Of a stretch of 64,000 nucleotides of DNA, positions 12,906 to 50,200 are shown piece after piece (position 1 is the first letter of the stretch; each line of letters starts with the position of its first letter). Both the position numbers and the translations under genes were made by a program. The DNA is taken from the NCBI GenBank assembly GCA_030141605.1, contig JAQGDQ010000037.1, positions 496,001 through 560,000 on the forward strand, given 5' to 3'. Under the pieces are notes generated by a model that saw only the letters and a program-made list of their open reading frames with translations, was not told where the DNA came from and did no database searches. Source of the DNA: Tubiluchus corallicola. Lineage: Eukaryota; Animalia; Priapulida.

Positions 12906-15900
12906 CTATGAAACCATATGAGTCTGTTTGTTAAAAAGTTCTAATGTTAGACTACTAAGAAAAGCTGGAATACTGTCCCGTTGTTTCAGGTATAGTTCCA
13001 GCATTTCTGTCAGCGTTCGAGAATAGTCGTTTTCCAGCAGCGATAAACCATCTTTGTTTTGCTGAAAAAAAAACAAGAACACGTGTAGAGTGTAAAAAAG
13101 CTGTGAAAGAAACATATTTCTGCAAGAATATATATTTACAGTAGAGAGAGAAGACAGGCAGTCAGGCAGTATTATCATTCAATTAGAGAATAATTTCTAT
13201 AGGTACTTAATGACCCAGATCTGGCAGCCAACAACACATCTCTGGAGTTTTTCAATTTTTTTCACTAGTATATTGTGTACCCAGCATTCTGACTTTGTAT
13301 CTCAAACTCTCAAAAAACTGTTTGGCAGTAAGATAATGTCCAAGAAAAGGATATTTTCTTTTCATCTCTGGTGATACCAAACTATTGTATGTCACGCTGG
13401 AACGTTGGCTTACTTTAGTGTAGGATTAGACATTGTCATAATTTTTCTTTGTATTAAAAATTCTTGACTATGACTGTACACATCTTAAGAAGTCCAAAAC
13501 CCACATGTCTAGAGATATTCATAAATTAAATTCAGCAATTTGATGTCAATTAATTTAATTAACTAACTTATTTTCTATTTGTTTGCTGTTTAATGTTTTT
13601 GTTTTTCTTTCACCTGAAGATGGCAGCATGTTACAGTAACAAAGCGGTTACATTAAGACGATTCGCCTGTTGCGAGAAAAACGGAAAATCTTGCAGCTTC
13701 TATTTTGCGCTGTAGGTGGCGCCAGTATAATCGGTTGGCTGAAATGACCGAAAAGTGTAAACAGTATTTTTGCTATTTCGTTGAAGATTTTTCTCGGAGC
13801 GATTTTGTAATTAATCTTTGTTCGCGATTTTGTTCGGCTCTTGCACTGCCTTAAATATATAGAAAAACCGATCACAATGAAACCAAATTGTTAAACATTT
13901 AATGTCAATGTATTTCTTAATTCATTTAGAATGCATGCAGATAATCAATTACTGGAAGGGATTCGATAAAGGAAAAATCCATGTTATTTATAATGCGAGT
14001 AGGCCTGTAGCAGCAACAGTGAAAATGGAAAATATTGGACTATATACAAACTATCAATAGCAAAATTTTAATAAAAACGAGAGGCACACCCACAGTTTTA
14101 ACATTCCTTACTTTATTTTTCATAGGTCTATAATTAGTGTGTATAATGCTAATCGTTGTTATTGGCATATCGCAATATAATTTCTAGAAAAAATATTATA
14201 AGTAATCAGTATAAACATACATCCTGTTAACTTTATGTGCATCAGTTGTTTATCTTAAAAGCTAAGTGGAGAATTTATGAAGCAAGGAAGGATGCTGAAA
14301 GTTATCAACTTTATGTGTAGCAGAGAAATCGAACAATGCAAGTCGTGCGCAATGCAAAGAAGAATTATGAGAGAACCTTGGTTGAGTCTGTATGAGAAAA
14401 ACCAAAGCAATTCTGGGCATATGTAAATCAGAATCTAAATAAATGGGACAAAATTCCAACACTGGTGTTGGAATCAGCAAGGATTTTGATAAGGCAGAAC
14501 TTTTAAATCAATATTTTGCAAGTGTGTTTACTGATGAGGAAGAAATTAATGAACGATTTGCCAGCCAAACTGACACAGTAATCAGCTCAAAAGAAGTCAC
14601 TGAGAATTTAATCAATGATGCCATTTCTCATCTCAAAGATGACTCGGCAATGGGATCCGATTAGTTTCATCCCTTCGCAATTAAGCAGCTTAAGACAGTG
14701 CTAGCAACTCCGCTTAAGATGATATTTCAAAAATCACTCGATGAAGGGAAAGCACCTTGCCCATGGAAACATGCAATGGTTTCTTCAATTTTGAAGGAAG
14801 GAGAAATAAACCTAAAAACAAATTATCGACCAATCAATTTAACATCAGTGATTTGCAAACTACTGGAAAGAATCATCAAGGAATGTATATGGTCATTTAG
14901 TTTCCCAGAACCTTCTCAGTGATTTACAGTATGGATTCATCAAAGGTAGCTCATGTATACTCAATTTGTTGGATGCTTTAACTGACTGGTAGGATTCAAT
15001 CGAACAAGGTTGGGATGTAGATGTGATATATTATGATTTTCAGAAAGCATTTGATAAGGTTCCCCAAAAGAAACTTCTTTTGATACTGCAGGCTTGCAGA
15101 ATATCTTGTAACATTTTAGCATGTATTCAAGATTTTTAACAAATTGTTCGCAGTGTGTAATAATCAACTCTAGTAAGTCGTCCAATGTTGCTGTAAAGAG
15201 TGGCATACCACGCTCAGACCCTTATTATTTCTTATCTACGCTATTGACCTACCAGACAAATTAACATCAACAGTCAAAATGTTTGCCAATGACATGAAGA
15301 TATACAAAAGTGTAAAGTCAACTTATGATCGTATGACACTGCATTGTGATATATCAGTCATGGATGCATGGTCCAGAGAATGCCAAATGTCATTTAACAC
15401 AGATAAATGCAAAACTTTACATCTAGGGAACAACCATGACAAATTTAACTATTTCATGAGTGATAGGTCAGGCGGGCAGAGAATCATAATGCAAATTGAG
15501 TGTCAAAAGGATCTTGGGGTATATGTGGATAGCAAGCTGACATTTAATCAATATATTGATGAAGTCACCAAGAAAGCAAGAAAGAGGCTTTGCTTAATTA
15601 GAAGAACTTTCAGTTTCCTAGATATCCCGATGTTTCTGATTTTATACAAAACATTTGTCCGTCCTATCCTTGACTTTGGAGATGTCATATGGAATCCATC
15701 TAGACTGAATGCAATAAGAAAAGTGGAATCTGTCCAACGTAGAGCTACAAAATTAGTTCCTGCCATGAGCCATCTGACGTATTCAGAACAGATACGAATT
15801 TGAAACTCCACTCATTGAGATTTCGAAGGAAGAGAGGTGATTTGATCCTGATGTTTCGTATCAAGAACAATCTGACTAAACTACAGCCTGGTCGTTATTT

Positions 15901-18900
15901 TGCTAATAGTCTACGAGGTACTGGATATAAAGTTATTAAGCCCAGATGCAGAAACCGGAATAGGTTTGTGTTCAGGACTGTCAATGATTGGAATTCATTA
16001 AATACTAAGGTATGGTGTACCACTAATGCTTCACACTTTAAGACATAACTGGATCAGTATTGGAAAAACCATCCTGAAATGTATCACAACCCATTTCAGC
16101 CTGAATGGACCCTATTGCCCGAGAATTAAAGACTCCCACTAGACTGACTATACACCACAATGGCATAGTATTAAACAACCATGGGCAAAAAGCTATTAGC
16201 TTCGCCCTGATCATCGAAGGTAATCGTTTATTAACCGAAGATTAATGCTTATCTAATAATAAAATAGAATACAATTTCTTTGAAACAAGTTGAAGTTTTG
16301 AAGCTGAAGTTTTTATTATTAACACACTATCATAGAAAGATTTTTATCTTACTGGTTTGACAAAATGATTGGGTGAGTAGAATATAACTTTGTACTTAAC
16401 CGAAACAACATCAAAACTTATCATTAGTGTTCAGGCGGCAGGATTACAGTTTGTACTTCCAACTGACCAAACACTTTTTTCAAAACTATTTGCATATCTG
16501 GTATCTCTAGTTCATACATTTCTAGTTTGTTCACTTTTTAATGCAGCTCGGCACACTGCCGGAGTCATCAGCACTTAAGGTGGATGACATTGTGGTTGTG
16601 GCAAAACCGTAATCTAGCATATCATGGCTGATTTCCTAAGATTAGACACTGTAGTGACTGAAGTGTCTATCATACCCAGTGGCCACCTCATTAGCATGCT
16701 TAACTTAGATCACTCGACCATGACTACTCCGCCATTCGGCTATTCTAATCACCTCAAAATGTACTTTACAAAATATAAGTAACACTTTCACGTAAATTTT
16801 ATCATTCATTGTCTTGACTTGTGTGGACAGCAGTATAAAATCTTGTTTTACATTATTACTACACTTGTTAATTATGCCTATATATCACACTGACCATTAT
16901 TTTAACACCTAATTATTTGGCATAATAAATCTGTTCTGTTTAGTCAAAACTCCTTGAATATTTTATGCTGACACACTTTTTGCTGTAACCCTTTGTCATT
17001 ATGTTTAGTATTAAAGAAAAATGTTCTGTAACCATTGAAGAACCATAAGTTTTAATTTGATATTGAGCTAAAGCAGGTATAATAATGCATAAAGCTGTGT
17101 TATCAATTTGTGCTGTCACAACTTATCTCTTAAATAATTTGTGGAAAGAATTTCTTGAGCAAAAACTAAAATGAAATTCTTCACCTTAGCAAGTAGTATA
17201 TTCATTAACATGTAGTAAAGTATTGTCTTTGAACATCTGCATTCTACATAAAAAAGCTTTAGATTCAGTGTGAGAAGTTTCATTTTTTCTAAAGCAAAGC
17301 ATGAGCCATAACTGATGAATGGCTGAATTATAATTTAGTAGCAGGGTTCTAGCAGTATATTCCATTGATCAGTCCCTAAAGTTAGTAGTTACCAATAGAA
17401 TCTCAAATTAGGACCCATTTTTTGTTTTGATAATGTGCTTTACATGTGAGTGTTTATGTGAATAGTTTTTGTTTTTGGTTGCAGGTTTACATTTTGATCT
17501 GTTACAATACTAGTATGTGATACAACTTTGACTGTCATTCCAAATCTCTCACGTGCTTTGCCAGTTCTACCTTTGCTTGAACATAGCCACCTACACATAA
17601 TGGCAAAGGTTTTTATAGTCTTCGTTTTGCTCAAGGTGCTTAGTGATGTCAGTTGTAGTGAACTTGTTTATCATCATTATTGCATAGTCGGTGCAGGACC
17701 TGCAGGTTTACAGCTTGGCTACTTTTTGGGCAAAGCTGATCGTGATTATCTTGTCCTTGAAAGAGCAAATACCTCCGGTTCTTTTTTCATGAAATATCCT
17801 CGTCATCGTAAACTTATTAGTATCAACAAGCGAAATACTGGTAGGAAGAACAAAGAATTTAACTTACGCCATGACTGGAACTCACTGCTCTCCGACAATG
17901 AGTTACTCCAATTCAAACACTATTCGCATGATTTTTTTCCGGATGCAGACACATATCGGAAATATCTTGAAGATTTTCGTGAACGTAATAATGTCAAGGT
18001 GCAGTTTAACACTGAAGTGAACAACATAAGAAAAGTTTCAGATAAAGATAACTTCAAAGGATTTTTTTTCTTAATGAATGATCAGCGAAATAACATTTAT
18101 AAGTGTCGCACTGTTGTAATGGCAAATGGCGTTTCCATTCCAAATGTGCCAATATTTAAAGGATCTGAATTTGTAGAGGAATACGCTGATATCTCAGTTG
18201 ATCCGGAAGATTATGAGGCAAAATCTCTTTTAATTTTAGGTCATGGAAATTCTGCTTTTGAGGTAGCAGATAGCGTAATAGGACGAACCAATTTTATTCA
18301 TATGCTTGCTAGATCACGAATTCGTCTATCATGGGAGACTCACTACGTCGGAGATTTGAGAGCTGTCAACAATGCTTTGTTGGACACATATCAGCTGAAG
18401 TCACTCGATGGTATAGGGGAAGCTGACATGAGCGAGGTAGAAATAGAGAAGATTGGTGATCAGTTTTATTTGTCAGAAGCGAGCAATGGCGGAATACACG
18501 TTGACGATAACTTTGCTTTTAGAGCACCTTATGATAAAGTTATCAGCTGCCTCGGTTTCAAATATGACTTCAGTATTTTCAATAGTTCACTTCCAGTCAA
18601 AGTTGCAGGAAGTGGAATTACCAAAAAATTTCCAGCTATATCCCATCACTATGAGTCTAAACAAGTACCAGGTTTATTTTTTGCTGGTGTAAATACTCAC
18701 TCCCTGGATGTTTATAAATCTGCAGGTGGATTCATACATGGTTACAGATATACAGTTAAAGCATTGTACAGGCTTCTGGAATATCGCTACCATGGTGTGG
18801 AATGGCCATCGATTAGCATAAAATCTTCGCAAATTGTAAACTTTATTTTACGGCGTGTAAATGAAGCTTCCGACATATATCAAATGTTTTCCATTTTGGG

Positions 18901-21900
18901 TGACATTATTTTAATAAAAGAGAATGGTGAAAGTGCAGAATATCTGCAAGGCTATCCCATTAAAACATTATCAGATTTTACCAAACTCACTGGAAAGGAT
19001 GGGGGACCAATGATTGTTGTAACACTGCAGTACGGAGCTAATTTTTCTGGTCCAGGCAGTGATCCATTCCGAAGAGATAGAGCAACAGCCCAACAGGAGC
19101 TGGCTCATGAATCTAATTTCCTACATCCAGTACTTTACTACTATGATCAAGTGCCATCAGCAAATGAAATGACATCTCTGTTAGAGGGTCAGATACTGCC
19201 TAAGCCACTATTTCTTCATCATATAGTTGAAGATTTTCTTACTGAGTTTACTGCTCCAGCATCTCATATTGAACCTCTGTACCGTTTCATTGATGCAGTA
19301 TTAGGACAAGATACTAGATGGAGATTTGCTGAAGACTGCTTTAAACAGGCATTGACACAGTCTTTCCTACCCATGACCTGCAGACAGTATTATGCACAAG
19401 GTGTAGGAATAGTTGCCTAGTACTTACTTTAAATTTGCACAATAAGTAAATTACAAAGGTCACGCAAAGGTCCAGTAGTGCAGAATAAAATGTCACGTAA
19501 ACAAAAAAGCTTGTTGCTTCATTTCACAGATCGCATTAATTACTTTTCAAACGTCATGACGTGAGGTCTCATAAACTCTGTTTAAAAATGTTGTAAGTTC
19601 AGTTCTACACATGACAAAACCTATAGTCTGTAAAAGGCATCAAGAAGCATGAATTGCAGTCATGTAATTGATATTTTCAATCTTATTTATAATAGAATAG
19701 CTTTGAGACACCTCATGGTTTTAGAAATAATAATGAGACAGCTGGACTGTCTCAGCTGGAACTGATGTTATGACTCATAATACGTATATACTCAACAAAA
19801 GGCCCCTAAAACCTTTATCTCTTTGCCAACTGTACTTTAAATACATGTCAATTCTCAACAATACAAATGAACTTTAAAACTACTTACTTGAAACAACAAG
19901 CAGTCTTCGGGTGATTCCGCATACATACTTCGCAGCCGGTACTGATTTCGAACGGGAATGTCAATTTGGTATCCGAGCAGCATGTAACACACTTCGCGAA
20001 ACTCGGTACTTGTTTTGCGGAATACTTCCATCAGACGTTGGTTTTTCAACTCGCTTGCTCGCATTTGTGCCTTCATATCTGAAAAACACATGGTTATTTC
20101 ACCACTTTCGGTGTCACTTATGTCTCTAGTAAATTAAAATTCGCAAAAAAAGTCCACCGTAAATTATTTGAAATACATCAAGAGGTAGTGAACACAGTTC
20201 TACGATAGCATTCACAGTATTCTCTCTTAATTTCGTTGTCTGCTCTATTTGTGTGTGACATTACCACAAACCAATAAAGATATGTCATCATACAAATGAG
20301 AAATCTTCATAACTTTGTTCTCATTTTGTTGGCAATATTTTTACAGCCCACTTTTTCCATTAACGATGAGAATAATCTTCCAATAAATTTGAAACTTTTT
20401 CATTACTCACTTTGACTATGCGTACTAAGAAACTTTTTCATTACTCACTTTGACTATGCATACTAACTCACTTAGACTCAAACAAAAATAAAATGCGTCA
20501 TGATGTTCCTGTTTGCGTATAACATCTAAACATCTCTGGATTTTTTTCTCAATTACAGTAAATGAATTACTTGAAAAAGTATAACTTCATGGTTTCTATG
20601 TTGTCTACAAACTGTATTTGTGCTATTTTCAACCTAGATACTGAATCTTGAATTTACTTTTAAAGACCACGTTAAGCAACAGACTAGAATGTGTTCTTTT
20701 TGATGTGGTACAAGAATCTGTTTGTGAATCTACTTGTTAATTACAAGGTCACCTTTCTTTTATAAATAAATGATTATTTTGTGTTATTCGCATTTTTGCA
20801 GAATCTTGTATTATTTATTCATTTGCTAAGACCACAGAGGGACTGCGATGCACGATAAAAATGGCACAGGAAAAAATGGCACAAATGGAGGTAAAAATGG
20901 CCATGTATTGCTTTGATACAGATAATTCCAATAAGTAATTAAAATAATTATGATGCAATGTATAATCTACAGTGTCAGACGACTTAATACGCTCACTTTC
21001 AGGCGAAGTATTGCAAAGCAGAACTTAAAAAAGATATGGCTATTCAAGAGATTAAATAGCTTCCATACAGTTTACACCCATTTCTCAGAAAATATTTTCT
21101 TTGAAATTCATTTTACAGAAAAAACATTTCCCAGTAAGATTCATTTTTAACAGAAAAATCATGGTAAGGTTTTTAATTGCTTTAAAAAGAGTAGGAATAA
21201 AGCCTTCAATTTCTCTTTTTCTGTTTGCTTCTCTTTGTTTCCCTCTCATCATCTCCCTCCTTCTCTCTCTCCCTATCAGTCTCCTCCATCTTTCTTTCTC
21301 TGGCCTTTCTTTTTTCCTCTGTCTCTCCCTTTCTATCCTTGTTCTCTCCTACACGCCTTCCTCTTCCTTCCCCTCCCTCGCTCTTCTCTCTCTACCTCTC
21401 CCTTACTTTATTCCCTGTCTCACCCCTGTTTCTTTCTGTCTCTTTCTCTCACCCTTCTCTCCTTTCTCTCTCTTTCTGCTTTTTAATTATCTACAATGCT
21501 TTTACTAATGACTATCAGAAATCAGTATCATTTCAAATGACACAAATATTTAAAGTGTCAACCTTGTTTTTTTATTTTGCTTTAGAAAAATATTTTGTTT
21601 GCAACTTTCACGAATGATTTTTGTATATTGTGTATGATCAAATTTTACGCAAAAACAGCAAAAAAATTTTTGCGATGTTATACCCCTTCACAAAGTTTCG
21701 TGGAAATCTGTTAGGTAGTTTCTGCATAATAGGCTTACTGATATAACAGACAAAAGACAACTAACCAAACAAACTGTGTTAAATCATAACTTCTTTGTCG
21801 GAGGTAAAAATAAGTAGAATAATTATCACGTATAACAACCCTAAACTTAAACTCATTTTTTACTAAGTGTGCTATTTTTTCCTGAGCCATTTTTACTTAC

Positions 21901-23903
21901 TTTTCCATTTGTGCCATTTTTTCCAGTGACATTTTTACGTGCATTTAGGGACTACATGTCACATAGCTAACCACAACAATCACTCCATTAAATAGCAAAA
22001 CTCCTGAATTGTTTTTTTCTAAAATAATCAACTAGCAACCCATTATTAACTCCAGTGACCTTTGACATCTAGGGCAAAAATAGCCTTTCATTTTTTTATG
22101 AAAAGTGATAATTTTTACTCTGAATTTGAAGCAAAAGGAGCATAAGTTGTAGTGCTAACAAGCTGGCACCTAATGAAGTTCTTATTTCTGGTTCTTGCTT
22201 ACAACGAAACACGCATGCTGAGCATGCTATCTTTAAAATTTGTCTATGTACAAGCTCTATTACAACCACTATTATTGACGAACAATTTCTTGTCATAACG
22301 TGTTTCAGCAGTATTTGCAGCATTTCAAATAAATGACCATTGTATTCTAAAGTCCACATCAAGCTTTCAGGTGGCTCATTATAATGTTGTTTTCAACTTG
22401 CAATGCATTTGCTTCAGCTTAGATGTTTCAAACATCCATTGAAAGTTTTGGTTTCATGAATTTTTTCTTTATAAATTACAAGATGATACGTTTTACCTAT
22501 TCGGTGTGTTGGCTTTGACATTTATTACTTATAATGACTTTTGGTTAATAAGAATAACTTTTTTAATATAAAAATATTAAATCACAGATTAAAAAAATCA
22601 CAGGAAAAAGTTAATACTTTTCCAAAGAAAAATTCTATCTTGATCAAATGTCAGAATTGCTTGTAGTTAAGCTCAGTAATATAACTGACAATGATTTGCT
22701 AATTTCACACAACTAATAAAGCATTAATACTTCATTTAGTTTGACACTGCCAGTTAAACAGCAGTGCATAAACCACAATGTAATTGAATTTTGTGTCTGT
22801 TTCTGAAAAGGACTACAAGGACGAATCATGACTACAGTGAAATCTTATTATTTCGAAATGGTTATATTAAACCTTCTAATTCTTTAGGCGTAGGTTGATT
22901 CTGGATCTGCTCTTCAACCTGCACGGTCAGGTCAACAACTTTACCGCCAGACTCCTCTAAAAGTTTTACTCTTGCTCTAAGTGCTTCACACTCAGTTTTT
23001 AATTGATTGAGTTCTTCACTTCGCTGCTTCAGTGCCATTGATGTAGGATTCATTTTGAAGTGGATAACTTTTGTTTCTCTAGGATTACAAATTGGCTGCA
23101 AAGTAAAAGTTTTCTTTAGGTATAATTTGAAACATAGTCGCATAACATAATGTCTACTCTTTTAGAAACGTGCAGGAAGAGAACGAAAATAAGCCGGAAG
23201 AAATTAAGAAGAGCTTCATTCACAAGGACCAATGTGCACATTTTACACATAAAAAGTTGTTCAATGCCACATCAATACAAATTCTAATTAAAGATTTTGT
23301 TTTTCTTTTGTATTATTTAAATCACTATCTGCTATCTTGATATTATAACAGACTTTCATATGTCACTAACTACTTCAGTATCACAGATTGAATGTAACTC
23401 AAACTGTGTGCTTGAGTTATACAAAATAATATATAGCTGCGCTATCCAAGGGCTATCCTGCATGAATGAAAAAGTGATGCTATATAATCATTTTGTGACA
23501 TTTCTCTTTTTGTAAAGCAGAGTAACATTTGCTTACTACTACCTAATAGTGACTACTCATACACCAATCTTAAGACTATTATTATTTAGTTGACTACCTG
23601 ATTCTCAACTTTCCACCGTTCCAGTTCTTCACATCTCTGCTGAGAACGCTCCAAAGCTGCTTCTAGTCCAAGAATTTTTTCGTCAAGTAGCATTGTGTGT
23701 TCTGCTGTTGATCTGTACATAAATAAATGCAATTTTTAAATTATCTTTACAGAAACATATTTTTCAAAAACAAAGGGATGATACATATGGGATTGTAATT
23801 TTATTTAAATTTTTCTTCAAAAAATTTACTGCATACAAGTGTGTGTGTGTGTATGCGTGCGTGTGTACATGTACATGCATGCACACATACATATATATTA
23901 CAA

Positions 23904-23950
<47 letters not shown>

Positions 23951-26900
23951 AATACATATAAATCTACACATTTATATATGTATATATATATATCTGAATA
24001 TTTTATTAGTAAATTTCTAATTAAAGCTCAAAGCTCTTAAGCCTTAAAACACGGCTAACAAAGTCTCTAAACAAACAGTGACCTCTCTTAATTTTCGAGA
24101 AAGCTCACGTGCTAACCAACAAACTGTATATATAAATTGTTATACTTGTTTAAAAATTCTGCACATTGCTCAAAATGTAAAAAAAAAGATCTAAATGGGT
24201 AGTTTAGTACTGTCATACCTTGGATAATGAGTTAAGTGAGAAAACTTGCACAAACCATGGAAAGCCAAGGAACTTAACCCTGTGCAACTCATATTATCGG
24301 TACCAACAACCCAGTGTTACGCAAAAACAGCAAAAAATATCAGAAAAATATTTAAACTAGCTCACTTGAGATAATCATTGTCTTCTCTCAGTTTCCTATT
24401 CGCTGCCTCAAGTTCGTTGATTTTTGTAACTTCGCTCGCTATCGTTGTGGAAAGTACTTCTGTTTCTTTCATTCGGGTTAATTTCTGCTCCAGATTCTGA
24501 AGTATATTTTTACAATTGCCTTATTTACTCATTAGACCCTATCTGAATGAAAATATATGATGATGATAGTAATAATTATGTGCATGTCAAACATAATCGT
24601 TTGCACAGAGGAGCAAAAACATACCATGTTATGACATCGGAGTTCCTCTGCTTCTAATTTCAATTTATTGATCAGTTGTGCTTGATTAGAAGAATCCTGG
24701 CTGCGTCTACAAAAAATATATCCAGTTCAGCTGGAATTTAGTGATTTACAAATAAAACATACTCCATGAAGTAGCACTGAACGTTATGGAAGTCCAGTTG
24801 CTTCTAATAATATAGTAAATACCTTAGTGGATTACATCCTAATAGAATAAAGCCTTCATTTAATGATGCACAGTCAGAATATTTTTCAACCATTCTCTGA
24901 CCTAACGACGAATTTTTATGTTTAGGCCAAATATTTTATCCAAATATTATTGTGCTTTCATCTTCTAAAAAGCTGTCATAATAATGTGTTTTTTTTTTAT
25001 TCATGTCAGACTGTAAGATACTGACATATTAGCTACTGTGCATGTACCTACTATTAGCTACTATTACAGATACTACTAGTATATGAGAAGTTTGCAATCC
25101 ACGCAGCAAGATTTACATCCACATGACATAAACATACTTTAACAACTGTCGCATCTTGGCTTTCAGTTCATGTGACTCAGTCTGTGCCATTTTAATTTCT
25201 CCCTGCAACCTGTAAAAAACAAAAAGTCAATAGTCCGCAATGTGTGCAAACAGACAATAATAACCTCTTTAATGCTTAAAGTCACACTAAAATCTCACTA
25301 TAATCTTTTACAACCTAAAATCCTAGTCTCATTACATATATTCAGTTTGTTTTATTACAAAGTTACTGTAAAACTTGTTTCTTTTGATTTTTTATCACTT
25401 CGTTGTTAGCAGTATTAAATTTGAAGAACCGCTATGTTTCATGCGTGTTATGAGTACAGCCACGAGGTCGCCAAAGATGGGCAACCAAAGACGCTTTCTG
25501 TACTTCGTACATCATTCTCGCTCACTAGCGTCAAAGATGCGAAACATGGCGATCTTTATAGGCAATACATGAATTCGAAATTCTCCAGAAAAAAGATGTT
25601 ACTTAATTTATAAGTCTCTTTTATTTAATAATAACTATGAATTATTTGTATAATCATAATAATGTGTTAAAAAAATTTGGGGCTGCTGGGGTTATATAGC
25701 CCTTTAAATACAGGTATCGGTCAGAACTATGTTAAGGTCTCAGTAGACCCTTGGCCCTACAACTTATGATAACTAGTCACATACACTATCCATATTAGAA
25801 CTTTCTAGTGATTGAGCTTGTAATTGAAGATTAAACTGTAACACTGCAAAAAAATCTAATGCATAAAAATATCTGTAATTTTTTGCAGCAAACTTAAAAA
25901 ATGATGATACACTAAACTGCACCTCTTTTGCATTTTTAAAATATATAGCTAGAATGCAAAATGTACATAAAACAGTCTAAAAAATTTTAAGGGCCCTAAA
26001 TTATTTGCAAGCCTAAGGACGACTTGGGTATCCAACTTTCAAGTGAAGTTATTAGGAAGTTAGCTATGAACTAGAATAATGCAAGAAAAAAAGAAACCTT
26101 AAGTGCTTTAATGCTTAACTACAAACATATATCAACATAGCTATTGTCCTAGGTCCCACATGCTACAAGTTATGTCCCAGTTACACACCCACTACCCCTA
26201 CTGGAACTTTCTAGCATTTCAGGTTATAGCTTCAATAATGTGCAATATGTACAATACACAATACCTATAAAATATCAGTGTGGGTAGTTCCTTTACTAAT
26301 GTAACTGTTACATTGACATTTTCAAAAATGTCACTTCTTACAGTCTCAAGTTACATTGTCAAAAAAGTAACTAGCTGCAGCTACAGCTCTTTCTCCACTC
26401 TTAGAAAAGTAACTACAGTTACAGTTCCTTTAAAAAGCATGAGGCTGTCAAAATTCATGCTAGAATGCAGTCACACTGATGACTTGCACAGCAGAAACTA
26501 CTGCATATCCTAAACGAAAAGCATAACAGTATCATGTGCAAAGTACAATATTTATATGGCATACAGTTTATAAATTTTTATAAGTTTAACTTTAAAAAAA
26601 CGTAAGCAATAAAAATAACTATTACTTTCATTAAAAGGAACAAGTTACAGTCACAAGTTAGGTTCTAATAAATTTAAAACTCATTACAGTTACAGTTCGA
26701 CAATGTTCAAAGTACTTTTTTGAACTAGCTATATTTTTAACTCATCATTCCTATTACTGAATGGTGTAACAACGAAATTAATGGAAACCAGGTGACCTTC
26801 AAAAAATCTGGTGACCTTCAATTTAATAAAAACTTTAGATGTGCATTAAAATGTTACCTCAATTGCTCCTGTCTGTACTGACTTTTAAAACTTGACATGG

Positions 26901-29900
26901 TCTGTTCAACCTAAAAATAAACAAAACAAAAACCAGTTGTATTATAGATATTTGTACTGTACTGCTTAAGAAAAGATAACAGAAGTTGTTAATGGGGTCT
27001 TTTGTAACGATTCTCTCCCACGATTGTTTTGATAGTACATTGCGTTGCTAAAAATACACTGAACTGCAGTATTAGTGTTCAAGTCTGTTTATTTTAAGAT
27101 AGATCGCTCTTGTGTTTTGACTGCTCCAACCATAACAAGTTAATAAGAGATATGAATGATAAGAGATAACTATTTCCAATTAGTGAAACTTTGAAACAGT
27201 TTAAAGCCTGCTTCACCTGAGTTTACAGAGTGACTGCCCAAAAGTTACTGCCTCTGTGTCAGCTTTTTCGTTACTTTTTTAACAGCAAAACTGAATCAGG
27301 AAGCTTTCCAGTTAAATGCCTATATAACCTCAACAAACATTGTTTTTTTAACATACTATTATAGTTACACAAAGAATTTATAGTTACTTTTTGATAAATG
27401 TAACTGATAAATTAAATAACTTACCTTTTTGTGGCGAATTTCGTGAAGTACATATTCCCGTGAAGATCGCCATGTTTCGCGTCTTTGGGCGAGAATGATG
27501 TAAAGAGTGCAGAAAGCATCTTTGATTAACGATATTTGTTTATCATATCAGAGAGGTGACCTTACGACTGCACTCATTACATCATTCATCTCGTGCAACG
27601 AAAAAAATGGCAGTTCTTCAAATTTAATACCGACAATCATGTACAGATAAAAAGGCAAAGAAACTAGTTTTTTTAGAAAGATCATAATAAAATAAATTGA
27701 ATATTCGTAATGAAAGTAGGATTTTAGGTTGTAAGAGCTTATATTATAGTGAAAGTTTAGTTTGACTTTAAGGAAATATACTTTAAGAAAAAAAAAGATA
27801 ACAAGAAATACAATATCAATGACTTCTCAGGAGAAAGAATTGGATAACCTTGCTTTAATTACATATACAGCCACCAACTCATATTTTTTTTCAGTTAAAT
27901 CTATACTCTTATATTAATATTCTTGGTATGGGCTTAATTTATATATATATAAGATTCGAGGCTACAGCTTCGACGACGGCACCATTTGCGGCGATCTATA
28001 TATCAAACGAAAGGTCTCGATCTAGTGTCTTCTCATTGATGGTTTATTTTTCGAATCGGGCCCACCGGGAGGAGGGGGAGGCGAAAAACCCCCAAAAATG
28101 GCCCTTTTTCGGCCGTTTTTTGCAAAAGTTATACGGCTGAGATGTAGAGAACGGGAAAGGGCCGAGGGGTGTGCTGGGTATGGATAGATAGCCCGTTCAG
28201 CGGTGGGTGTAGTAGGTATATTTAGAATTCCCGAGAGGGCCAGGGCGCCCCGCAACGGGCGTTTTCCCGGACCCAACTCGCGATTTTTTCGAAATTTTGA
28301 CCAAACGGCCTGCGGAAAAAACGTTCTAGCGGCGCTTGGTGGGACTCTCGGAAGGAGATATGGGGCTCTTTACAAAGAGGAAGGACAGGGCTACACGATG
28401 ATGTGGGCTATATGTTAGGACAGGTCCACCGAGAGGAGTATCGACGAGTTAATTAGGTGTTCAATTTTCCGCAAATTTCGCAAATTTTCGCTTAGAAAAC
28501 AGTTCTGACCGCATTCCATTGTGCTGACGTCATCCATTGTACTCTGTCTATAACTTTAATTCAGCAAAAAGCTGCTTTGCAACATACAGTAGGCAGGAGT
28601 AAACGCTGCTGGCTTTGCGTTAGGTAAGTAGGCAGGATGTTACGGGCTTTGTGTTATAAATGAGGACTTGGTAGGATGTTCGCGTGTTATTGCTTATACG
28701 TGGTTTTTTCCACAAAATCTTTTGCGGGGCCTTTGCTAGTTGATAAATTAATGTTCAAGAGATAACCAAAATAAACTAGGAGACACAAAGGCAGCATTAT
28801 ATGTTTAAATGAAGAAAATAGTTATATCTTCTGTGGTAACTTTATGTTTGAAAAAACATCCTTTTTCAACGATCCAGGTGCACAATACCTCTGACAAATC
28901 TGATATCAGTTTTCGCTTTTCTCGTTCTAATTGTAGTATTTTCTGATCTGTTTTATGAGTATTGATTCTGTACTTATACTGCTGTGCTTCCATTCTTGCA
29001 CTTTCTTCTTGTTCAGCTAAGAACGTCAGCTTCCTGTGTAGTTCTGCAATCGTTTCTTTATCTTTCTGCAAAATAAATTTTCTGTAATATAATAATGGAG
29101 CAAAAAGTATAAACTAAATTTAATACACTTGGTATTGGATGGGTACAAGTATTCACATTTTCACCTTTTTCTGTAGCCCTTCACCTTGAGTTTCTTCACG
29201 AAAAAATCTCAAATTTGCAAAACAGGCTGTACAACACAAATATTTTCAATTTGAATATATACATTCCACATAGCTGACACAGTGCAAAGTGTTTATAATG
29301 CATCTAAACACGTCAGTAAAAATCATATGTAGCGTGTTTTATTTATATTTCTGTGTGCAGTATAATATTTTTGTCAAGTGCAAATAAAGATAATATGCAA
29401 GAAGTACTTAATGCCATTTATTGTAACTTTTATATCCTAGTACAAATCCAAGAATGTGCACACATGAACTTGTTACATATAGTCCAGGAACACCTTTAAA
29501 TTCTCAAGAAAAATGAAAATGCAATGCATTACACATGATCAGTCGCATGATGAGCAGAATGCATGTTTTAACACTACACATGTTTATGCAGTAGACAGCA
29601 AAATTTTGATAAAAACACCTAACGGCAATGATAACTTTTAAAAATAAAATCAGTTTACCTTTTCTTTCTGGTGTAAAATTTCTACTTTCTTTTCCATTTC
29701 TGTTTTAAAGCACGAATAGTTGGTCTGAAGAACACCCATATCAGTTTCTAGTTTAGCAATGTGTGCTTTGGCTGAAACAAGTTCTGCTTCAAACAGTCTC
29801 TTCTCTGTTTCTGCAAAACACATGAATTTTGTTAGCTATTATATCTCCAAGTATACACTGTCCATAAAATCTAAATCTTACTTTTCAGTGTTCTACCAAA

Positions 29901-30167
29901 AAAGAAAAGCGAATTACACGTGTGTTACATAAAACAATAACAATTCTTACCATCAGCAGATTTGTGAAAAAAGTCAGTTGGTACAGTATCCTCAAGCAAA
30001 CTACTTGTATCAAAGTTGAGGTGACTCGTAACTTCAGGCTTTGCTTCTGGTCTTGCTATATCTGCCTGATGCACTACATTACTACGCGATTCTCTTAAAA
30101 AACTGTCCAGAGTTCCGAGCATCCGAATCACACCAGTGTTGTCCTCCATTGCCTTTCCAGACATCAT
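12906..30167 (-). CDS. MAD1L1: Mitotic spindle assembly checkpoint protein MAD1 (about 522 aa, 11 coding exons)
   Basis: Minus-strand coding exons: 30167-29951, 29810-29659, 29065-28889, 26910-26858, 25209-25138, 24706-24625, 24496-24366, 23712-23598, 23095-22873, 20078-19888, 13061-12906. All junctions are GT-AG with compatible phases; total 1569 nt including TAG. Mad1 hallmarks: N-terminal MEDNTGVIRMLGTLDSFL, Mad2-interaction motif RETKVIHFKMNP, SELKNQRLMEVF, GYQID, NQYRLRSMYAE and C-terminal DSIPAFLSSLTLELFNKQT. Confidence 0.93.
14260..16223 (+). mobile_element. 5'-truncated CR1-clade LINE (RT domain with stops and frameshifts)
   Basis: ORF fragments read KAELLNQYFASVFT, NYRPINLTSVICKLLERII, FQKAFDKV, MFANDMKIY (degenerate FADD), KDLGVYVDSKLTF, LYKTFVRPILDF, VQRRATKLVP, RRKRGDLI and RTVNDWNSL. 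A 3' stem-loop (gggc..agct att agct..gccc, about 16183-16207) and an AGGTAA end follow. Confidence 0.93.
16600..16733 (-). mobile_element. Degenerate tRNA-derived SINE head
   Basis: The minus strand begins GGCGGAGTAGTCATGGTCGAGTGATCTAAG, an A-box-like Pol III motif; the B-box is degraded. Confidence 0.35.
17600..19420 (+). CDS. FOXRED2: FAD-dependent oxidoreductase domain-containing protein 2 (ERFAD) family, single coding exon, 606 aa
   Basis: Uninterrupted ORF with ATG at 17600 and a signal-peptide-like start (MAKVFIVFVLLKVLSDVSC). It has the FAD-binding YCIVGAGPAGLQLGY, a second dinucleotide fold LILGHGNSAFE, and family motifs YPRHRKLISINK, FNLRHDWNSLL, SWETHYVGDLRAVNN, SAGGFIHGYRYT and SNFLHPVLYYY. 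An upstream splice acceptor ends at 17484 and AATAAA lies at 19484-19489. Confidence 0.93.
   Translation: MAKVFIVFVLLKVLSDVSCSELVYHHYCIVGAGPAGLQLGYFLGKADRDYLVLERANTSGSFFMKYPRHRKLISINKRNTGRKNKEFNLRHDWNSLLSDNELLQFKHYSHDFFPDADTYRKYLEDFRERNNVKVQFNTEVNNIRKVSDKDNFKGFFFLMNDQRNNIYKCRTVVMANGVSIPNVPIFKGSEFVEEYADISVDPEDYEAKSLLILGHGNSAFEVADSVIGRTNFIHMLARSRIRLSWETHYVGDLRAVNNALLDTYQLKSLDGIGEADMSEVEIEKIGDQFYLSEASNGGIHVDDNFAFRAPYDKVISCLGFKYDFSIFNSSLPVKVAGSGITKKFPAISHHYESKQVPGLFFAGVNTHSLDVYKSAGGFIHGYRYTVKALYRLLEYRYHGVEWPSISIKSSQIVNFILRRVNEASDIYQMFSILGDIILIKENGESAEYLQGYPIKTLSDFTKLTGKDGGPMIVVTLQYGANFSGPGSDPFRRDRATAQQELAHESNFLHPVLYYYDQVPSANEMTSLLEGQILPKPLFLHHIVEDFLTEFTAPASHIEPLYRFIDAVLGQDTRWRFAEDCFKQALTQSFLPMTCRQYYAQGVGIVA
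20391..20466. repeat. 38-bp tandem duplication (1 mismatch)
   Basis: GAAACTTTTTCATTACTCACTTTGACTATGCRTACTAA occurs at 20391-20428 and 20429-20466. Confidence 0.95.
21200..21485. repeat. CT-rich low-complexity polypyrimidine tract
   Basis: About 280 nt of almost pure C/T; it produces the spurious S/L/F-rich ORFs in the track. Confidence 0.9.
21680..21807 (-). mobile_element. Helentron-associated (HINE/DINE-like) element fragment
   Basis: The minus strand reads TTACCTCCGACAAAGAAGTTATG followed by a GTTT/GTCT-like microsatellite, close to the widespread TTACCTCCGCCAAGGAGGTTATG terminus (recalled). Confidence 0.55.
23839..23993. repeat. Compound (GT)n/(TA)n microsatellite
   Basis: Visible dinucleotide runs. 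Confidence 0.9.
25280..25703 (+). mobile_element. TTAA-flanked MITE (Kolobok-like), copy A
   Basis: Ends are TTAA|AG (25276-81) and CT|TTAA (25702-07). It is homologous along its length to the reverse complement of 27316-27767. Confidence 0.7.
27316..27767 (-). mobile_element. TTAA-flanked MITE (Kolobok-like), copy B, inverted relative to copy A
   Basis: TTAA at 27312-15 and 27768-71. It shares blocks with copy A in reverse complement, e.g. GCGAAACATGGCGATCTT, TACAACCTAAAATCCTA, TTAAATTTGAAGAAC. Confidence 0.7.
27938..28739 (+). mobile_element. Non-autonomous Helitron
   Basis: 5' end A|TTTATATATATATAAG (TC start mutated to TT). The 3' end has a hairpin CCACAAAA-TC-TTTTGCGG (28710-28727) followed by CTAG|T (28736-40). 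No TSD; GC/CpG-rich relative to the flanks. Confidence 0.7.
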
Positions 30168-42240: not shown

Positions 42241-44200
42241 AGTTACGAAAAATATTCAGTTATAACACGGTACAATATTAAAGTGAGCAGAGAATAAAAT
42301 GTGAAAAAAATGAAAATTACTTATAGGGCACTCTATTATCATAACAGTAAAGCGATTCAGCTAAAAAATGTAATTGTAGACGTCTATAGCCAAGCTATGA
42401 AAGACGAGATAAAAAACAATAGGATCTTTGAATTAAGAAAAAATACAATTTTGACATGGTTGTTCAATTACAGCCAAGAAAGCACTAAACTAAAGAATAC
42501 TAGTAAGGCATTGTATAGCCACAACAGAAATGCTGTTGCATTTAAAAGGATCCAGTTGCCAACAGTGTTACTCTATAGCTGGCTGCAAGGGATAAGAAAT
42601 ACTAATAGGGCATATCATGGCCACAGCGGTAGCGCCAACAAGCTAACAAGAAAAAGGAAAATCCGGTAATAAACATAAATACGAACGGAGTTCATCTTTT
42701 ACAGCTACATAAGGAACAGTGTAATACAATATGAAGAAAAAAGCTGAAAATTTAAAACCAGTGGTATAGAGTGTGAAAAGGTAATTTTAATTATTGTAGA
42801 AAATTATTACTGGCAAACTTGCATATGTACATGTGAAATTACAGCAAGTTTAAACTAAACATGTTTTAGCTTAGGCAAAACATTATCGGTAAACAGCAAA
42901 TTGCTTGGCTTGTGTTTACAGTGGCTGAAAGCAATGAAATCTAGGCTGCAACTACTTGAAGTCAAATTAACTGAGGCTTCTTCTGAATGAGCAAACAGGT
43001 TTAACGTATCAACAGAAGCCAATTGAATAATAGAATGAAATCATCAAGGTGACTCAAAATAGGTTCCATCTAAATGGTTAAATTTAGAATACAAAATAGT
43101 CAATACTCCAAGTTATCCCACTGCACATTGTTGTTCAAATAAGGTCGGAAATAAAATTGCCACAGTTCATGCAATAAGCTGAGTTTCTTTAGTACTATAT
43201 CGCAAGAACAACCTATATATATTTTCATTGTAGGCCCATATGATACACTACACAATTTATATAGCTAGGAAGACACTGACACAACAGTACATATGTAGTA
43301 CATAAATATTATGTTCATTTGCCTGAATTCAACAGTTAGACATATGACATACTGTATGGGTGGCAAATGGCAAATAAACAAATGATCAACATAAATGTAC
43401 ATGTAAATGAGCTGAATTTAATTGTACCATGTAGCTTTATGTTAAAAACCACAATAATGCACATTATATTTGAATTATAACTTAATTGCAGCCATCCTAT
43501 CAATAATCCACATCCTTGAACAAGACAATAAAATCGCTTGCAAAATTACTCGTTACAAAATTTCAGTTATTTATTAAACCGAATCATTTTAGAATGATTT
43601 TCAACTGAAGAATTTTAAAATGAATCGTTTAACAAGCATCAGCACCATCTGATCCTAGGTTCCTAGCTCCTATTAGTTCAACATGGAAAGTTTGTAAACA
43701 ATATACCAATAAACCATGTAGGTAGTTTGGGGTTCCGTCTCTTAGCAGTTAAGAGGAAACCATAAGATAAAGCGTTAATTACACATTTGCACCTATCAGA
43801 AAACTGCCATTAAATCAATATATAGATCATGACTGTAGTAGATAGAAACTACTAAAAACCGATATAATTAATTAATGTGTAAAACACTTTAATGCGGGAA
43901 GCCATTACATTCAAAAACTTTGGTGTGTGGTAACGCACAAGTGACAACCCAGAATCTATGGAAGCCCATAGAGTCCAAACTACTACAATGATATGTCATC
44001 AAGGTGCAACAATACATGGAGTCTATGTCTTCTTTTCTTTAAAGAAGTACCATAAGCCATAACTTTCATAAATGATTCACATACTTCAAGCAGATATAAC
44101 GGATGCGAATAGTGTGAAAATTTGATCAGGTTGCAGTATTAATATCATTTCATTGGCAATTGTTGTAAATGCAAATTTAAGCGTTCTGCAATTTTTTTAG

Positions 44201-47200
44201 ATGCCGGCCTACAATTTCACTGAAGTAAATTTCTGCGCTTTGTCATCTCAAAGCAACGTTTATGGTTTGACTTGTATATCCATGCCTGGGGGTGTGAATA
44301 AGTTACTTGTTGCTTCACACAGAGGCAAAGTTGTATCTATGGAATATCATAAAGTATCTGGAAATATGCGACCAGTATCAAGGGAGATTCAATTCACTTA
44401 TATTCCAGGTATGTGTATTGCAGTAATTAATTGGTAAGTACACAGCAAGTAAAACAGGTGTTACATGTATAGTGTTTGTAATTAGATATGTAAGGAATTA
44501 TAAATTGGAAGTCTTAGATGTTTTCGAAATTAATTTGGGTGCTTGTCTGTGCACTTCCGGATGTTATTGCTTGCTAACTAGCCATCTGGGAAGTCAGGCG
44601 AATAGATTATTATTAATTATAAATTAATTTCAGTGGATTGTTTCAGGTGATGCAGAAATAGTTTCCATTGACTCGTTTAACAAATCGCATCATGGTAACG
44701 GAGTAGTGGTCGGTATAACTTTTATAAAGGTAATTTCTTTACTTTTTTCACTCTTTTCATATTTAGAGCATTCAATATAATGCAGCGGCTCTCAATCTTT
44801 CTATGCCTCGTGCCTATTTGTCATATGTCAATATGTTATCCCCCTATTTTCCAGGTTTTCTGACACAAATGCACTTCCGGTTGATATAATATAGAGAATC
44901 CAATAACCTGAATGAACTGCTCTTTCATTTAATATGTGATATTCAATAGTGTAATGTCCTGTATATTTTGTGTAATTTGTGGAGCTATATTTTATAAAAA
45001 AGATCACTATGCGAACACTGGGCCTGCCAGTCTTTGGTCCTAAAATAACCCGCCCCGTTTTGCAGAATTCCCCAGTGCTTGAAAACCTGTATCTAATGTG
45101 CTGCTATTTGACTTGTGATTGGCGATATAGTGTATATTGTTTTCATCTGCTAATTTACTGGCATTTTTTGAAAACTCATCCATACTGGAAATTGTTAAAT
45201 CTTGTGCAATTAGATTTGCTAAATTGTTTGTGTTATATTTTTGTAGTACATGGAAAATAAACGAAGCCACTTTTTAAATATTTACTCTGACTGGGAACCA
45301 GGATCAGAATTCAATATTGATAGTATAGCTCGTATGTATGTTTTAGTGTTCTTACAAAATTTTGTTTTAAAGATAAGGTTAAAAAGGCTCACCTTGCAAT
45401 TCCCTTGATATGGTTGCATGACTTTTCAAGTTAAATTATCATCTGTTCATTCTGATTAGGAACTTGTAATGCAACTTTTTTTTACACTGGAGGCTCCGTT
45501 GTATCAACCTCATGTCTTCTAAAATTGTAGAACCTTTACTTAGGAGAGGAGCGTAGGTTGCTTCCCGGCACACAGGCTATTTGTAATTTATGCACATCTT
45601 CCAGTGCACGTACTAAGGTCATTTTTCTAACTGTTTCACAGCAAGTTAATTGTCCCTCTGATTAGCAGCAACAAAAAAAGTGCTACAAATTTCTTCGCAT
45701 TTGTACTAAGTTTGGAAATCTTGTATCACAAAGACAAAATATACAAACTGCCATAGCCAGGCACTGTAACAATTTTGCATACAGTACAATACAAATCTTC
45801 AGCCACTTTACTCATCAACTATAAAAAAATGCTTAAGATTCAACACTGTATCTGAAACTTTGGAATCTCCTTGATTTTGAACATTACCAGCCATTGCTTA
45901 ATGCATATAATATTTTTAAGCACAAATTAATATACAAGACAATATATGCACACATTATTTTTAAGTGTGATTGTGTGTTGTAAGCGTGGTTTTATTTGAG
46001 ATTTGCCAGAACTCGCACATTTATTGCTAGTTGAGACATTTTTGGTCCTTAATGTAGGGATTACTGATGTTGTTGGTTGTGGAGTAACCGAAATCTAGCT
46101 CATCATTTGCAGTGCACAATTTTTTGGCAATGAGATACTAAACCTTAAATGGCTTCAAAGCCTTGATCACTTTTTACAAGTCATTTATCTTTGTTGCTGT
46201 TACATAACTTGTCAATATTAGACATGTATAAGTTGCACATATTACAAAGAATCATCTAACATTAATGAAGCTGAGAACACAATTTTTCATTACACAACTG
46301 TTCGGGTTAAAGGGAGAACAAAGGAAAAATCCGCATTTTGTGATTTTTTTCCACCCTTCTTATTTTTCCTTTCATCTGACTGCAGACAGTACATAATAAT
46401 CACCTCTATGTTTCTCCTTTTAATTTCCTTATTGTGAGGTATTTTGTATAAGTGCAGTTAATTCAAATTTTCATATTTTTCAGAGAGTTGTCAGAGTTTG
46501 GTACTGAATTTTGTGCCTTTCCAACTCTATCATACAATGTATGTTAAATCTGCATATTTTTAATATTTTAACTTACAATTTAACATCAATGTGTCAAATT
46601 AATGTAAAAAAGAAATTATGCATTCAATTTCGAAGATACTAGAGATTATAGTAAAAGTAATACATGCTTTTAGGTTTTCTGTAATTTGACTTGTCATGAG
46701 TTTTGTTTGTAACAATGTTTAAAAGTTTTGCTGCTCCAAAAAACTAATACAGTAGTCGCCACTTAATAGACTCACTTTGGGACCGTCATGTTTTGACCCA
46801 GTTAACCGATTGAAGCTATTAACTGATTGGTGTAGTATTACAAGTATAGAAGTATGAGTCATCAGCTTACTATGCACTGCAAGGGCTTTTAATCAATTTT
46901 ACAAAACGAAGTAATGCATAAATTCCTTTGTGTAGTTAAAAATTAGAAAAAATATTTTAAACCACAGTTTTAACACTGACTCCATATCATAGTCTTTTTC
47001 TGTGCGTAGCCTCTTAGATGCTAGATTCTCATTTTGGCTTGCTGACTGCTCAGTTTTAGATCATTTTTTCAATATTCTGCCGTGAGTACTTTGGGAAATT
47101 TTCAACTGCGCTGTTGCACACCTCTGGAAATTTTCAGTTTCTCCTTAACTGTTAGATTTTACGCTTATGCTCCATTTTTCAAACTTCCTAACTCTATGCC

Positions 47201-50200
47201 CTTATTTGCTGTATGATGTTTACTCTTGTAAGTCAAAAAGGAATACTGACTAATTACTGTACCTGCATCTTTGACTGTTAACTCATTAAGCCTGAAAGTG
47301 TGATTTGCAACTAGAGTATCAAAAGGAAACCGCTAAGCAAGTGATTAAAATGTTCAGCTTCCAGAATTTCTTCGGGTAACGAGGTTAATTGCAGTGGGTG
47401 AGCGGGTGACAGATTCAAAGCAAAACCGCAATGTTAACGTATTACAGCATGATAAACATACCTGTTTACTTAACAAAACGGTACTTAATATGATTGTTTC
47501 TACATATATAATGCCTAAAAGGGAAGTAAAGATGACATAAACGTAGGAAAGGCTGTTTGGGCACATACAGATGTCCTATTTTAAGTATGTGAAGGAAAAA
47601 TGTTGAGTCAATTAAGCGAAGTTATTTGAGTCAATTACTGATAGTTTTTATGTATATTTGAATAAATTCGACCCGTTCCAGGCGTTTTTGAGTCAATAAA
47701 GCGATGGAGTCTATTAACCGTGAGTCTTTTAAGCGGCGACTACTGTATTTAAGTTGTATATTGTTAGTTTTACTAGCTCATAGTTCCCTTATTGCTTATT
47801 CACATAGTATGGTTTTAAATTCTCAGCAACTTTTGATTGTAAGATTATCTTAGTGCCTAAGCTTGAAATTCAATTCAATTCAATTTCTTTTATTTGTCTC
47901 TTTCTTGCTAGTAATATTAACGAATTCGTAGTGTAATTTAACTATCGATTATAGAGATGGGGTGGCATAAAAACCATGCAGTCATCTAGTCCAGTCACCT
48001 TTATAATTTAACTAATCGTTTACCTATTTAACATGATAGTGCTGAAAGAGCAAGATTGGTACAATAATTAAAAAATAGAAACTTTGTAAACTGAAGAAAT
48101 TAAAAAGACAAAAATTCAAAGAATATAACAAAAGGCAATGGTGTATACCAGAGCGGTAAATAATGCTAAATGAATTATGCTCAGGCAGTGAAAGACAATT
48201 TGTGAATAACAAGGATAATGATAATAATGTAATGTAATTATAATGATATAACTGTGCACAAAGTCAAAGTCTTCTCATTTTCATTTGAAAAAATAATCAT
48301 GCAATTATAATTTAATCCATAATGATGATGATGGTAGCAGAATATTCAAAATACGCAAATGAAAATTCAGGCAAAAATTAAAAAAGTTTATGAATGATAT
48401 TTTGATAATACGTATGTGTAAATAATTTAAACCGTGCAAACTCAAGGTATACAAATTTTGATAACCAAAAATTTATGCAAATAATACGAATATAGCAACA
48501 TAAACATAATGATGCAGTAAACAATGCTAAATGAATTGAATTCAGAATTGAAACATATTTCTTACAGGGCTGATGAATTATACGTACTTCTATTTTTATA
48601 TTGATAGTTTAGTTTCTGGAGGGGAAAACAAAGACATGGTGTGGCTGCTGAGTGGCAGTGATTTGAAAATTCATTTATTTCGAGAGGTAAACCTAAATGA
48701 TATTATTATTATCATCAAAATAAAATGTGCATCAATGAAAAAAAGGTTGATCTTGACAGAGCAATAAGCCTTTTCACAGTTTTGTCATGCGCACATGCAG
48801 TTGCTGTAGATCAAAGGTTAAGTGAACAACAGCAACGTGTCTTAACTGCAACTGCCTTGTGACATGTGGGTAAAGCAAAGCCAGCTGCTGCATCAGTTCT
48901 GTAACTTTTCTTGTGGCACCATTTCCTTATTGATTTATGTGGCCTTTAATTTATTATGCATTAGAGTGTTTACTAGCATAGGTAAGTTTCTAGCTAGCTG
49001 TTAAAACTGTTACTATTACAGTATAATGTAATAACATGGATGGCGAGGCATTGTCAAGTGTACACAAATGCATTGTATGGTTCACTTAACCTTTGACTTT
49101 TTCATGATCATCAGTTATCACTGGAACTGTGAAAAGGCTTATTACTGTATAATTTTTAACATACTGTATAATACTGCATAATTTTTTTAAACCTTTCTGT
49201 AGCTAAACTGTTCATTTAATTGGGTGAACTGTCCATTTTTTGAAGTTGCCTGAGTGCTGAGCCAAACTCATTTGAATAGCTACAGCCTGTTATGTGTTTG
49301 ATAAGTTAACATGACAACTGATTTTGTATCATTAAATTTCATTTGAAAGTTTCTTGGAATGACAGGCCTGCTTGTATTAATACATAAAAGAAAACAAAAT
49401 TAAGAAATTTCTTTTGCAGTTATAAATGTCTTGACCGTTACAAAAGCCTATAAACATTTGTGTGTTTGTCTGTTATTGTAAATACCTTTAAATTTGTGCT
49501 ACAAATTGTATAATGACGTGTGCTATTTTTTCAGGACAAGAATCAGCATTTGTTTAGCGAACAATCTGTGTTAGAAAGTTTTCCAGAACTGGATAATTTT
49601 CCTAGTCCGTGAGTCAAACACTACGTTCTTATCTTCTTACATTCTTATATTATACAAGCTGTTTGGTAAGTTAGCGATAAGCAAGTTGTAATTGGACCCA
49701 TTCCAAAAACAGGAGTCCAAGTGGTCAGTTCTGTCTCACATTACCATTATGGTTGTTATGGACACAATCAAAAATGTTTTCAGGGTTCATTGGATGGACA
49801 TACAATATTTTGATGACCATCAAAGAAGGTTAACTGCAGTTGGATGTCAGAATGGTTATGTTAGACTTTCTTACATTGATGTAGAAAAAAACGGTATGTA
49901 GTCTTATTTTCTTAGCCCAAAGATTATCTACTTTGTAGCAAATAGGCAATGTGTTTGGGTAACTATTACAGTGAATGGTAATTAATATTGTGCAATCATG
50001 ATTTGTGTGAATGGTATTGTTGTCTTACATGTTACTGATTGATTGATTAAATATTACAATGACTAAAATTACACTAAAAATACTGAAATTACTATATGCA
50101 AAATATAACTAAAAGCAGTTATAATTTGCCATGTTATCAAGAAGTTAAGAGGGTGTTCCACAATTTAAAAAATTCGATTTAAGTAAAAAAATTGTTATCA

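Follow-up and report, generated by a model that had tools for sequence, protein, structure and literature searches.

Mad1 is the protein that halts cell division until the chromosomes are attached. The MAD1 gene within a stretch of 64,000 nucleotides from the priapulid Tubiluchus corallicola (the window, analyzed here over its full length) raises the question of whether a Mad1 that lacks much of its central rod is real and, if so, whether it can still do its work. The gene is without at least five internal exons, and its open frame of 522 amino acids is likely spliced as modeled and probably encodes a working Mad1 that would be some 29-33 nm shorter than usual. This reading is drawn from the sequence and is weighed below against the alternatives.

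A MAD1 gene without its central exons

The window MAD1 lies on the minus strand, where 11 exons join in an open frame of 522 amino acids, the length proposed in the initial annotation, and all 10 introns are GT-AG (Table 1). The intron 8 donor departs from consensus at +4 to +6, as do several other donors of the gene. The Pfam MAD family (PF05557) recognizes exons 9, 10, and 11 with E-values of 3.9e-12, 2.3e-28, and 3.2e-16 (45.8, 99.5, and 59.3 bits, for a curated cut-off of 30).

Table 1. Parts of the MAD1 gene in window coordinates, with the basis for each placement or its content
Feature	Position	Strand	Basis or content
Exon 1	29951..30167	-	Start codon, aa 1-72; open frame, GT donor; weak match to start of full-length profile
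Exon 2	29659..29810	-	Splice/frame model, homologue alignment, profile
Exon 3	28889..29065	-	Splice/frame model, homologue alignment, profile
Exon 4	26858..26910	-	53 nt; placed by splice sites and frame; homologue alignment
Exon 5	25138..25209	-	Splice/frame model, homologue alignment
Exon 6	24625..24706	-	Placed by splice sites and frame
Exon 7	24366..24496	-	Splice/frame model, homologue alignment, profile
Exon 8	23598..23712	-	115 nt, phase 2 to 0; last exon upstream of lost block
Intron 8	23096..23597	-	502 nt; site of at least five missing ancestral exons (~200-220 aa)
Exon 9	22873..23095	-	223 nt, phase 0 to 1; PICN, Mad2-interaction motif KVIHFKMNP, helix alpha2, hinge
Exon 10	19888..20078	-	RLK-position motif (RLM), QYRL, RWD head
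Exon 11	12906..13061	-	C-terminal helices, QT (T716-equivalent), stop

The N-terminal coiled coil, Mad2-interaction motif (MIM), helix alpha2, hinge, and RWD head of metazoan MAD1/MAD1L1 (PF05557; 718 aa in human) are all found in the window protein, and near the MIM exon the two have introns at the same positions and in the same phases. The difference lies in a block equivalent to about human 309-532, to which the helix ahead of the MIM in the structure 1GO4 belongs; metazoan MAD1 has both the block and this helix, whereas the window MAD1 is without them. Aligned with three homologues of 718-730 aa, the model jumps from about 307 to about 531 (tblastn and alignment; P0007 numbering). The interval between exons 8 and 9 holds 0 residues in the window MAD1 versus 158-330 in every one of 148 homologues (median 224, and ~195-225 aa in most). 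These 148 are the proteins with both flanking anchors among 159 of at least 300 aa, a set rich in vertebrates and mollusks, and their median agrees with the earlier estimate of about 220 missing residues. The long N-terminal coiled coil (~485 residues) and the 485-530 helix are thus not found in full, with ~200-220 residues missing, and the 333 N-terminal residues that remain in the short MAD1 can be aligned with homologues.

The downstream edge of the loss is placed by the Mad1 chain of PDB 1GO4, with which exon 9 aligns (E 3.4e-7), its residue 6 standing opposite residue 54 of the 100-aa chain. That chain is human 485-584 according to the accessible text of PMC7614552, so exon 9 begins at about human 533, as the initial annotation had it. 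Its further claim, that the helix before the Mad2 motif in the Mad1-Mad2 structure has gone, is borne out by this match together with the alignment jump.

Traces of the missing exons were sought within the window. A profile of the block built from 28 full-length homologues gave nothing above 10.5 bits in six frames over the 64 kb, and its top five matches are MAD1's own other coiled-coil exons. Intron 8 contains 31 candidate open frames of phase 0-0 that could serve as mini-exons, the longest of 33 aa; plausible splice sites flank one of them (84 nt), which is without a Pfam match. A hidden mini-exon was rejected, as the candidates reach at most 33 aa and show no similarity. With profile, tblastn, and mini-exon scan all free of remnants, the statement that no coding exon lies between 23598 and 23095 holds, as does the description of a clean in-frame exon block: the exons at 23712-23598 and 23095-22873 are both phase 0 at the junction, 502 nt apart. 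The loss of whole exons encoding ~200-220 residues of the central rod, with the frame intact, is confirmed.

The lost block is not a poorly conserved filler. Its mean identity in the homologue alignment is 0.30, versus 0.27 for the retained N-terminus, and it contains a strongly conserved stretch of 0.52-0.54 at vertebrate 393-422. A block so well conserved should be costly to lose if this is the only MAD1. Five divergent but full-length homologues (P0130, P0140, P0147, P0151, and P0077) combine a middle block of 173-182 aa with the loss of GDYD, a milder form of the same trend.

What is retained is in good order. The exon 9 sequence KVIHFKMNP matches the Mad2-interaction motif pattern [RK][ILV]2 X3-7 P given in the available portion of PMC5579357. 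The R and L of the RLK position, QYRL, and the terminal QT (T716-equivalent) are all at consensus; the third RLK position is M, making RLM where metazoan MAD1 usually has RLK, and M is also found there in 15 of 49 homologues. The RLK-position motif, QYRL, and terminal Thr of the RWD head are present, on sequence alone, and roles for these elements in Bub1 and Cdc20 binding are described in the accessible parts of PMC7614552 and PMC5949338. Median identity to 49 dereplicated homologues is 0.505 for the C-terminus, where the homologues' own range is 0.33-0.54, and 0.227 for the N-terminus (range 0.17-0.30). The terminal branch of the window MAD1 is the eighth longest of 50, which is not unusual. 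By these measures the gene shows no decay, and its C-terminus appears conserved to the usual degree. Alignment, Pfam MAD matches, and motif counts also agree with the initial annotation that the N-terminus, Mad2-interaction motif, and RWD head were kept. The part of its overall interpretation that stands is a real in-frame loss of whole exons that spares these three; whether the product is a checkpoint variant or a second paralogue, which it left as alternatives, is taken up below as a matter of probability.

Continuity of the DNA and origin of the loss

Six public sequencing runs (X1-X6), none recorded as RNA, were examined as read-derived contigs. X1-X3 come from one sample, possibly the source of the window, and X4 from another; X1-X3 perhaps being the window's own sample, they test the assembly and not the species. 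A single X1 contig of 1907 nt covers 21904-23803 with no gap and two single-base differences, at 22244 and 23139, which suggest that the short intron is carried on more than one allele. No other piece, joint, or loose end was found in X1 across 22000-23800 at 80% likeness. The spanning contig has a depth of 180, and other tabulated X1 contigs lie at ~155-227; this ordinary depth fits a block that is absent from both chromosome copies, with the caveat that contig depth does not equal copy number.

The other runs give partial views. In X2 (depth 8-10), two contigs lie over intron 8 and meet at 23307/23308 with an overlap of only 2 bases. The break site is A-rich, with 20-24% G+C, and X4 is gapped there too, whereas X1 is continuous; the X2 break may reflect low coverage or a small variant. 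Three X4 pieces match end to end, without loose ends, and cover 297 of the 502 intron 8 bases, leaving 23207-23372 and 23524-23562 unbridged, either of which could hide a breakpoint. X3 covers 13 of 30 bins and stops short of the middle of intron 8. X5 is labeled as the same species; its one match is a weak, repeat-like contig, and none lies on the MAD1 exons. The matches of X6 (guessed to be RNA) are confined to a repeat and have no bearing on expression either way. Two smaller observations came from these runs. At 23014, one X4 contig of depth 5.5 has a C>T change that would replace Glu with Lys at exon 9 codon 28, an allele or an error. Within intron 9, 21686-21980 is a very high-copy short repeat, with a summed X1 depth above 100,000 and many variant copies.

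Assembly error was the weakness to which the initial annotation had pointed, and that doubt is not upheld, as the X1 contig passes through intron 8 unbranched. A dropout or collapsed haplotype, with the missing exons present at the true locus, could be read into the break of the X2 contigs inside the intron. The deep X1 run, however, yields one contig there with neither branches nor loose ends, and from the way graph contigs are built, an insertion of several kilobases in one of two haplotypes should have split it; the window itself contains no N. The unbranched contig and the lack of a second copy at 80% likeness make an assembly artifact hardly credible.

How the exons were lost is suggested by homologous loci. 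A metagenome scan gave 53 MAD1 loci from animals and other eukaryotes, none of them close (66% likeness at best), and an exon 8 homologue is present in four (L032, L041, L029, and L051). In L032 and L041 its size (115 nt) and phases (2 to 0) equal those of the window exon, and the intron ahead of the Mad2-motif exon is likewise phase 0; in L029 and L051 the exon extends beyond the position where exon 8 of the window ends. Between the two phase-0 introns, L032 and L041 have five or more exons, spread across ~2 kb and ~7 kb (some borders are approximate). Since both flanking introns are phase 0, a genomic deletion running from intron to intron would drop whole exons and keep the frame. An intron still stands at the junction, so nothing points to the gene having been replaced by a spliced cDNA. 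A hybrid exon, with breakpoints inside exon 8 and inside the helix exon, was considered and rejected, as exon 8 keeps its ancestral 115 nt. It is also contradicted by the halves of the exon: the 3' half fits the exon 8 profile better and the 5' half the helix profile, and a hybrid predicts the opposite pattern.

Among the matches examined there was no close relative, the nearest for exon 10 being 72% identical. Word-index protein searches gave 0 of 23 candidates for exon 9 and 3 of 26 for exon 11, with no close relative among them. The best 120 of 167 matches from an alignment-query search are all 646-891 aa, and there is no close relative among the matches listed. The window sequence takes a branch of its own in the MAD1 tree, with weak support. 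Nesting with FOXRED2, used as a marker of synteny, was seen in 0 of the 53 loci, most of which are too short to tell.

An apparently remodeled junction and the rival readings

The residues at the join have changed. Where exon 9 would usually start with GDYD, the window MAD1 has PICN, a replacement already noted in the initial annotation and confirmed here against 49 homologues. The usual residues are G in 43 of 49, Y or F in 39, and D in 44, while P, I, C, and N occur at their positions in 0, 0, 1, and 1. The motif that directly follows PICN is at consensus. Six of the 49 full-length homologues are also without the G of GDYD.

On the other side of the join, the final 30 residues of exon 8 resemble the lost helix that preceded the MIM. 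They match its profile in register (z 4.5), and none of 49 orthologous segments and none of 1000 shuffles scores higher in any of eight settings. When 53 segments of the N-terminus were scanned, only an overlapping one came near (z 3.9), and the best of the other 51 reached 2.7; three other N-terminal segments also score above all homologues (z 2.2-2.7). An unnormalized HMM comparison with the lost helix gives 10.5 bits to exon 7 and 10.1 bits to exon 8. The helix test was designed after the alignment had been seen and the homologues are not independent, and for these reasons, together with the exon 7 score, the likeness is taken as suggestive. The remodeled junction suggests that the exons were lost long ago and the flanking sequence adjusted afterward, instead of a private deletion having occurred recently. 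No close relative having been found, the age of the loss is inferred from the junction alone.

A recent deletion, private or segregating in a population and homozygous in the sequenced sample of a species that is normally full-length, is accordingly improbable on this evidence. Bridging of the intron comes from one sample, with two gaps in X4, and a deletion from phase 0 to phase 0 would keep the frame without any selection, yet PICN and the shifted exon 8 sequence, lying exactly at the junction, would need time to arise. The differences at 22244 and 23139 also place the short intron on more than one allele, and the X4 pieces have no loose ends. Very improbable is a restoration of the exons in RNA, by trans-splicing or from a relocated block, or a locus that is not expressed as modeled: nothing direct speaks for it, the cis junction uses ordinary splice sites and keeps the frame, and the divergence of the residues there looks like that of a stretch which the ancestral helix no longer precedes.

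The main rival to a functional compact variant is a second, diverged MAD1 paralogue with a narrower role, the canonical job being done by a full-length copy elsewhere. A conserved stretch and a functionally mapped segment (PMC9067404) would be easier to lose with such a backup, and the search for a second copy covered the 64-kb window and, for exons 8-9, the read contigs. No second X1 contig matches exons 8-9 at 85% or 80% likeness, however, which excludes a recent duplicate only, since an older full-length copy below 80% DNA identity would escape it, and the C-terminus does not diverge faster. Ancestral intron positions in the window gene show that it is no retrocopy. A paralogue with a narrower role is unlikely on balance, and a compact Mad1 that works is the reading developed here.

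A predicted shorter Mad1 rod and its neighborhood

In the proposed compact Mad1, exon 8 would be spliced straight to exon 9, and the exon 8 helix would replace the lost one (human ~485-530) as the dimerizing coiled coil just ahead of the Mad2-threading loop. The dimer would then run from a 333-residue N-terminal rod through the exon 8 helix, the changed turn, the Mad2-threading loop, and a helix to the hinge and RWD head. A coiled coil rises 0.1485 nm per residue, the value used to estimate the shortening of 29-33 nm. Closed Mad2, Bub1, and Cdc20 could still find their binding sites on the C-terminal platform, which could also go on catalyzing assembly of the checkpoint complex, and enough time would have passed since the change to remodel the junction.

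That a short Mad1 can work is supported by human constructs. The accessible text of PMC7614552 reports that the N-terminus is dispensable for catalysis in vitro, using Mad1 485-718 and 420-718. These engineered forms keep helix 485-530 and drop the N-terminus, whereas the window MAD1 does the opposite and is also without 420-485. A point of caution comes from Mad1 485-718, in which the head folds back and can be cross-linked to the N-terminal coiled coil, as described in the available part of PMC9605988; these cross-links imply that the helix before the MIM might need a particular surface.

Recruitment to the kinetochore would be expected to change. Deleting human Mad1 387-402 halves kinetochore Mad1 in nocodazole, through an RZZ pathway that is independent of Bub1, according to the accessible text of PMC9067404. 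The counterpart of this segment falls within the block that is absent from the window MAD1, where it overlaps the best-conserved stretch, vertebrate 393-422; the human mutant is engineered and lacks 16 residues, whereas the loss in the window is natural and more than 10 times larger. Without the segment, recruitment that depends on RZZ and the corona may be weaker or re-routed. The main kinetochore anchors left would be Bub1 and the N-terminus, including contacts such as that with Cyclin B1, mapped to human Mad1 residues 41-62 in the available part of PMC7298293. A fuller version, in which this is the sole MAD1 of the species, fixed long ago, with an upstream helix re-evolved as a stand-in and a checkpoint that runs without the RZZ/corona segment, would amount to a natural minimal Mad1 in a rewired spindle checkpoint; it is offered tentatively, as a possibility more doubtful than not.

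The literature searched, from which most subscription papers were missing, gave no animal Mad1 in which such a deletion occurs naturally, and the accessible text of PMC5268738 contains nothing on internal Mad1 deletions. As of 2022, the first 485 residues of Mad1 were without an experimental structure, as stated in the accessible text of PMC7614552. If true, a natural 522-aa Mad1 would put three matters to the test: the importance of rod length for the checkpoint, the need for a specific sequence in the helix ahead of the MIM as opposed to a substitute, and the dispensability of the RZZ-linked segment 387-402. It would also predict changes in the RZZ-Spindly corona of this animal that should be visible in its genome.

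Several other genes and fragments share the window. The last MAD1 intron contains, antisense to MAD1, an intronless gene of 606 codons at 17600-19420 on the plus strand, which encodes a FOXRED2-like flavoprotein with a hydrophobic N-terminus (Pfam Pyr_redox_3, E 4.9e-35; Atlas clusters named FAD-dependent oxidoreductase domain-containing protein 2, 0.99) and may be a retrocopy or a gene that lost its introns. The same intron has broken fragments of a LINE-type reverse transcriptase at 14400-16050 on the plus strand, with a weak RVT_1 match (E 0.014). Head-to-head with MAD1 is a multi-exon beta-propeller gene at 44200-54550 on the plus strand, which may be kaptin, to judge from its motifs; the Atlas neighbors of one exon are FG-GAP, BBS2/7, ITFG2, and kaptin clusters at 0.89-0.97, a weak recognition. 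Farther along the plus strand, at 59167-63600, is a PRRT-like gene whose N-terminal exon is rich in proline and in which another exon matches CD225/dispanin (Pfam CD225, E 5.6e-9).
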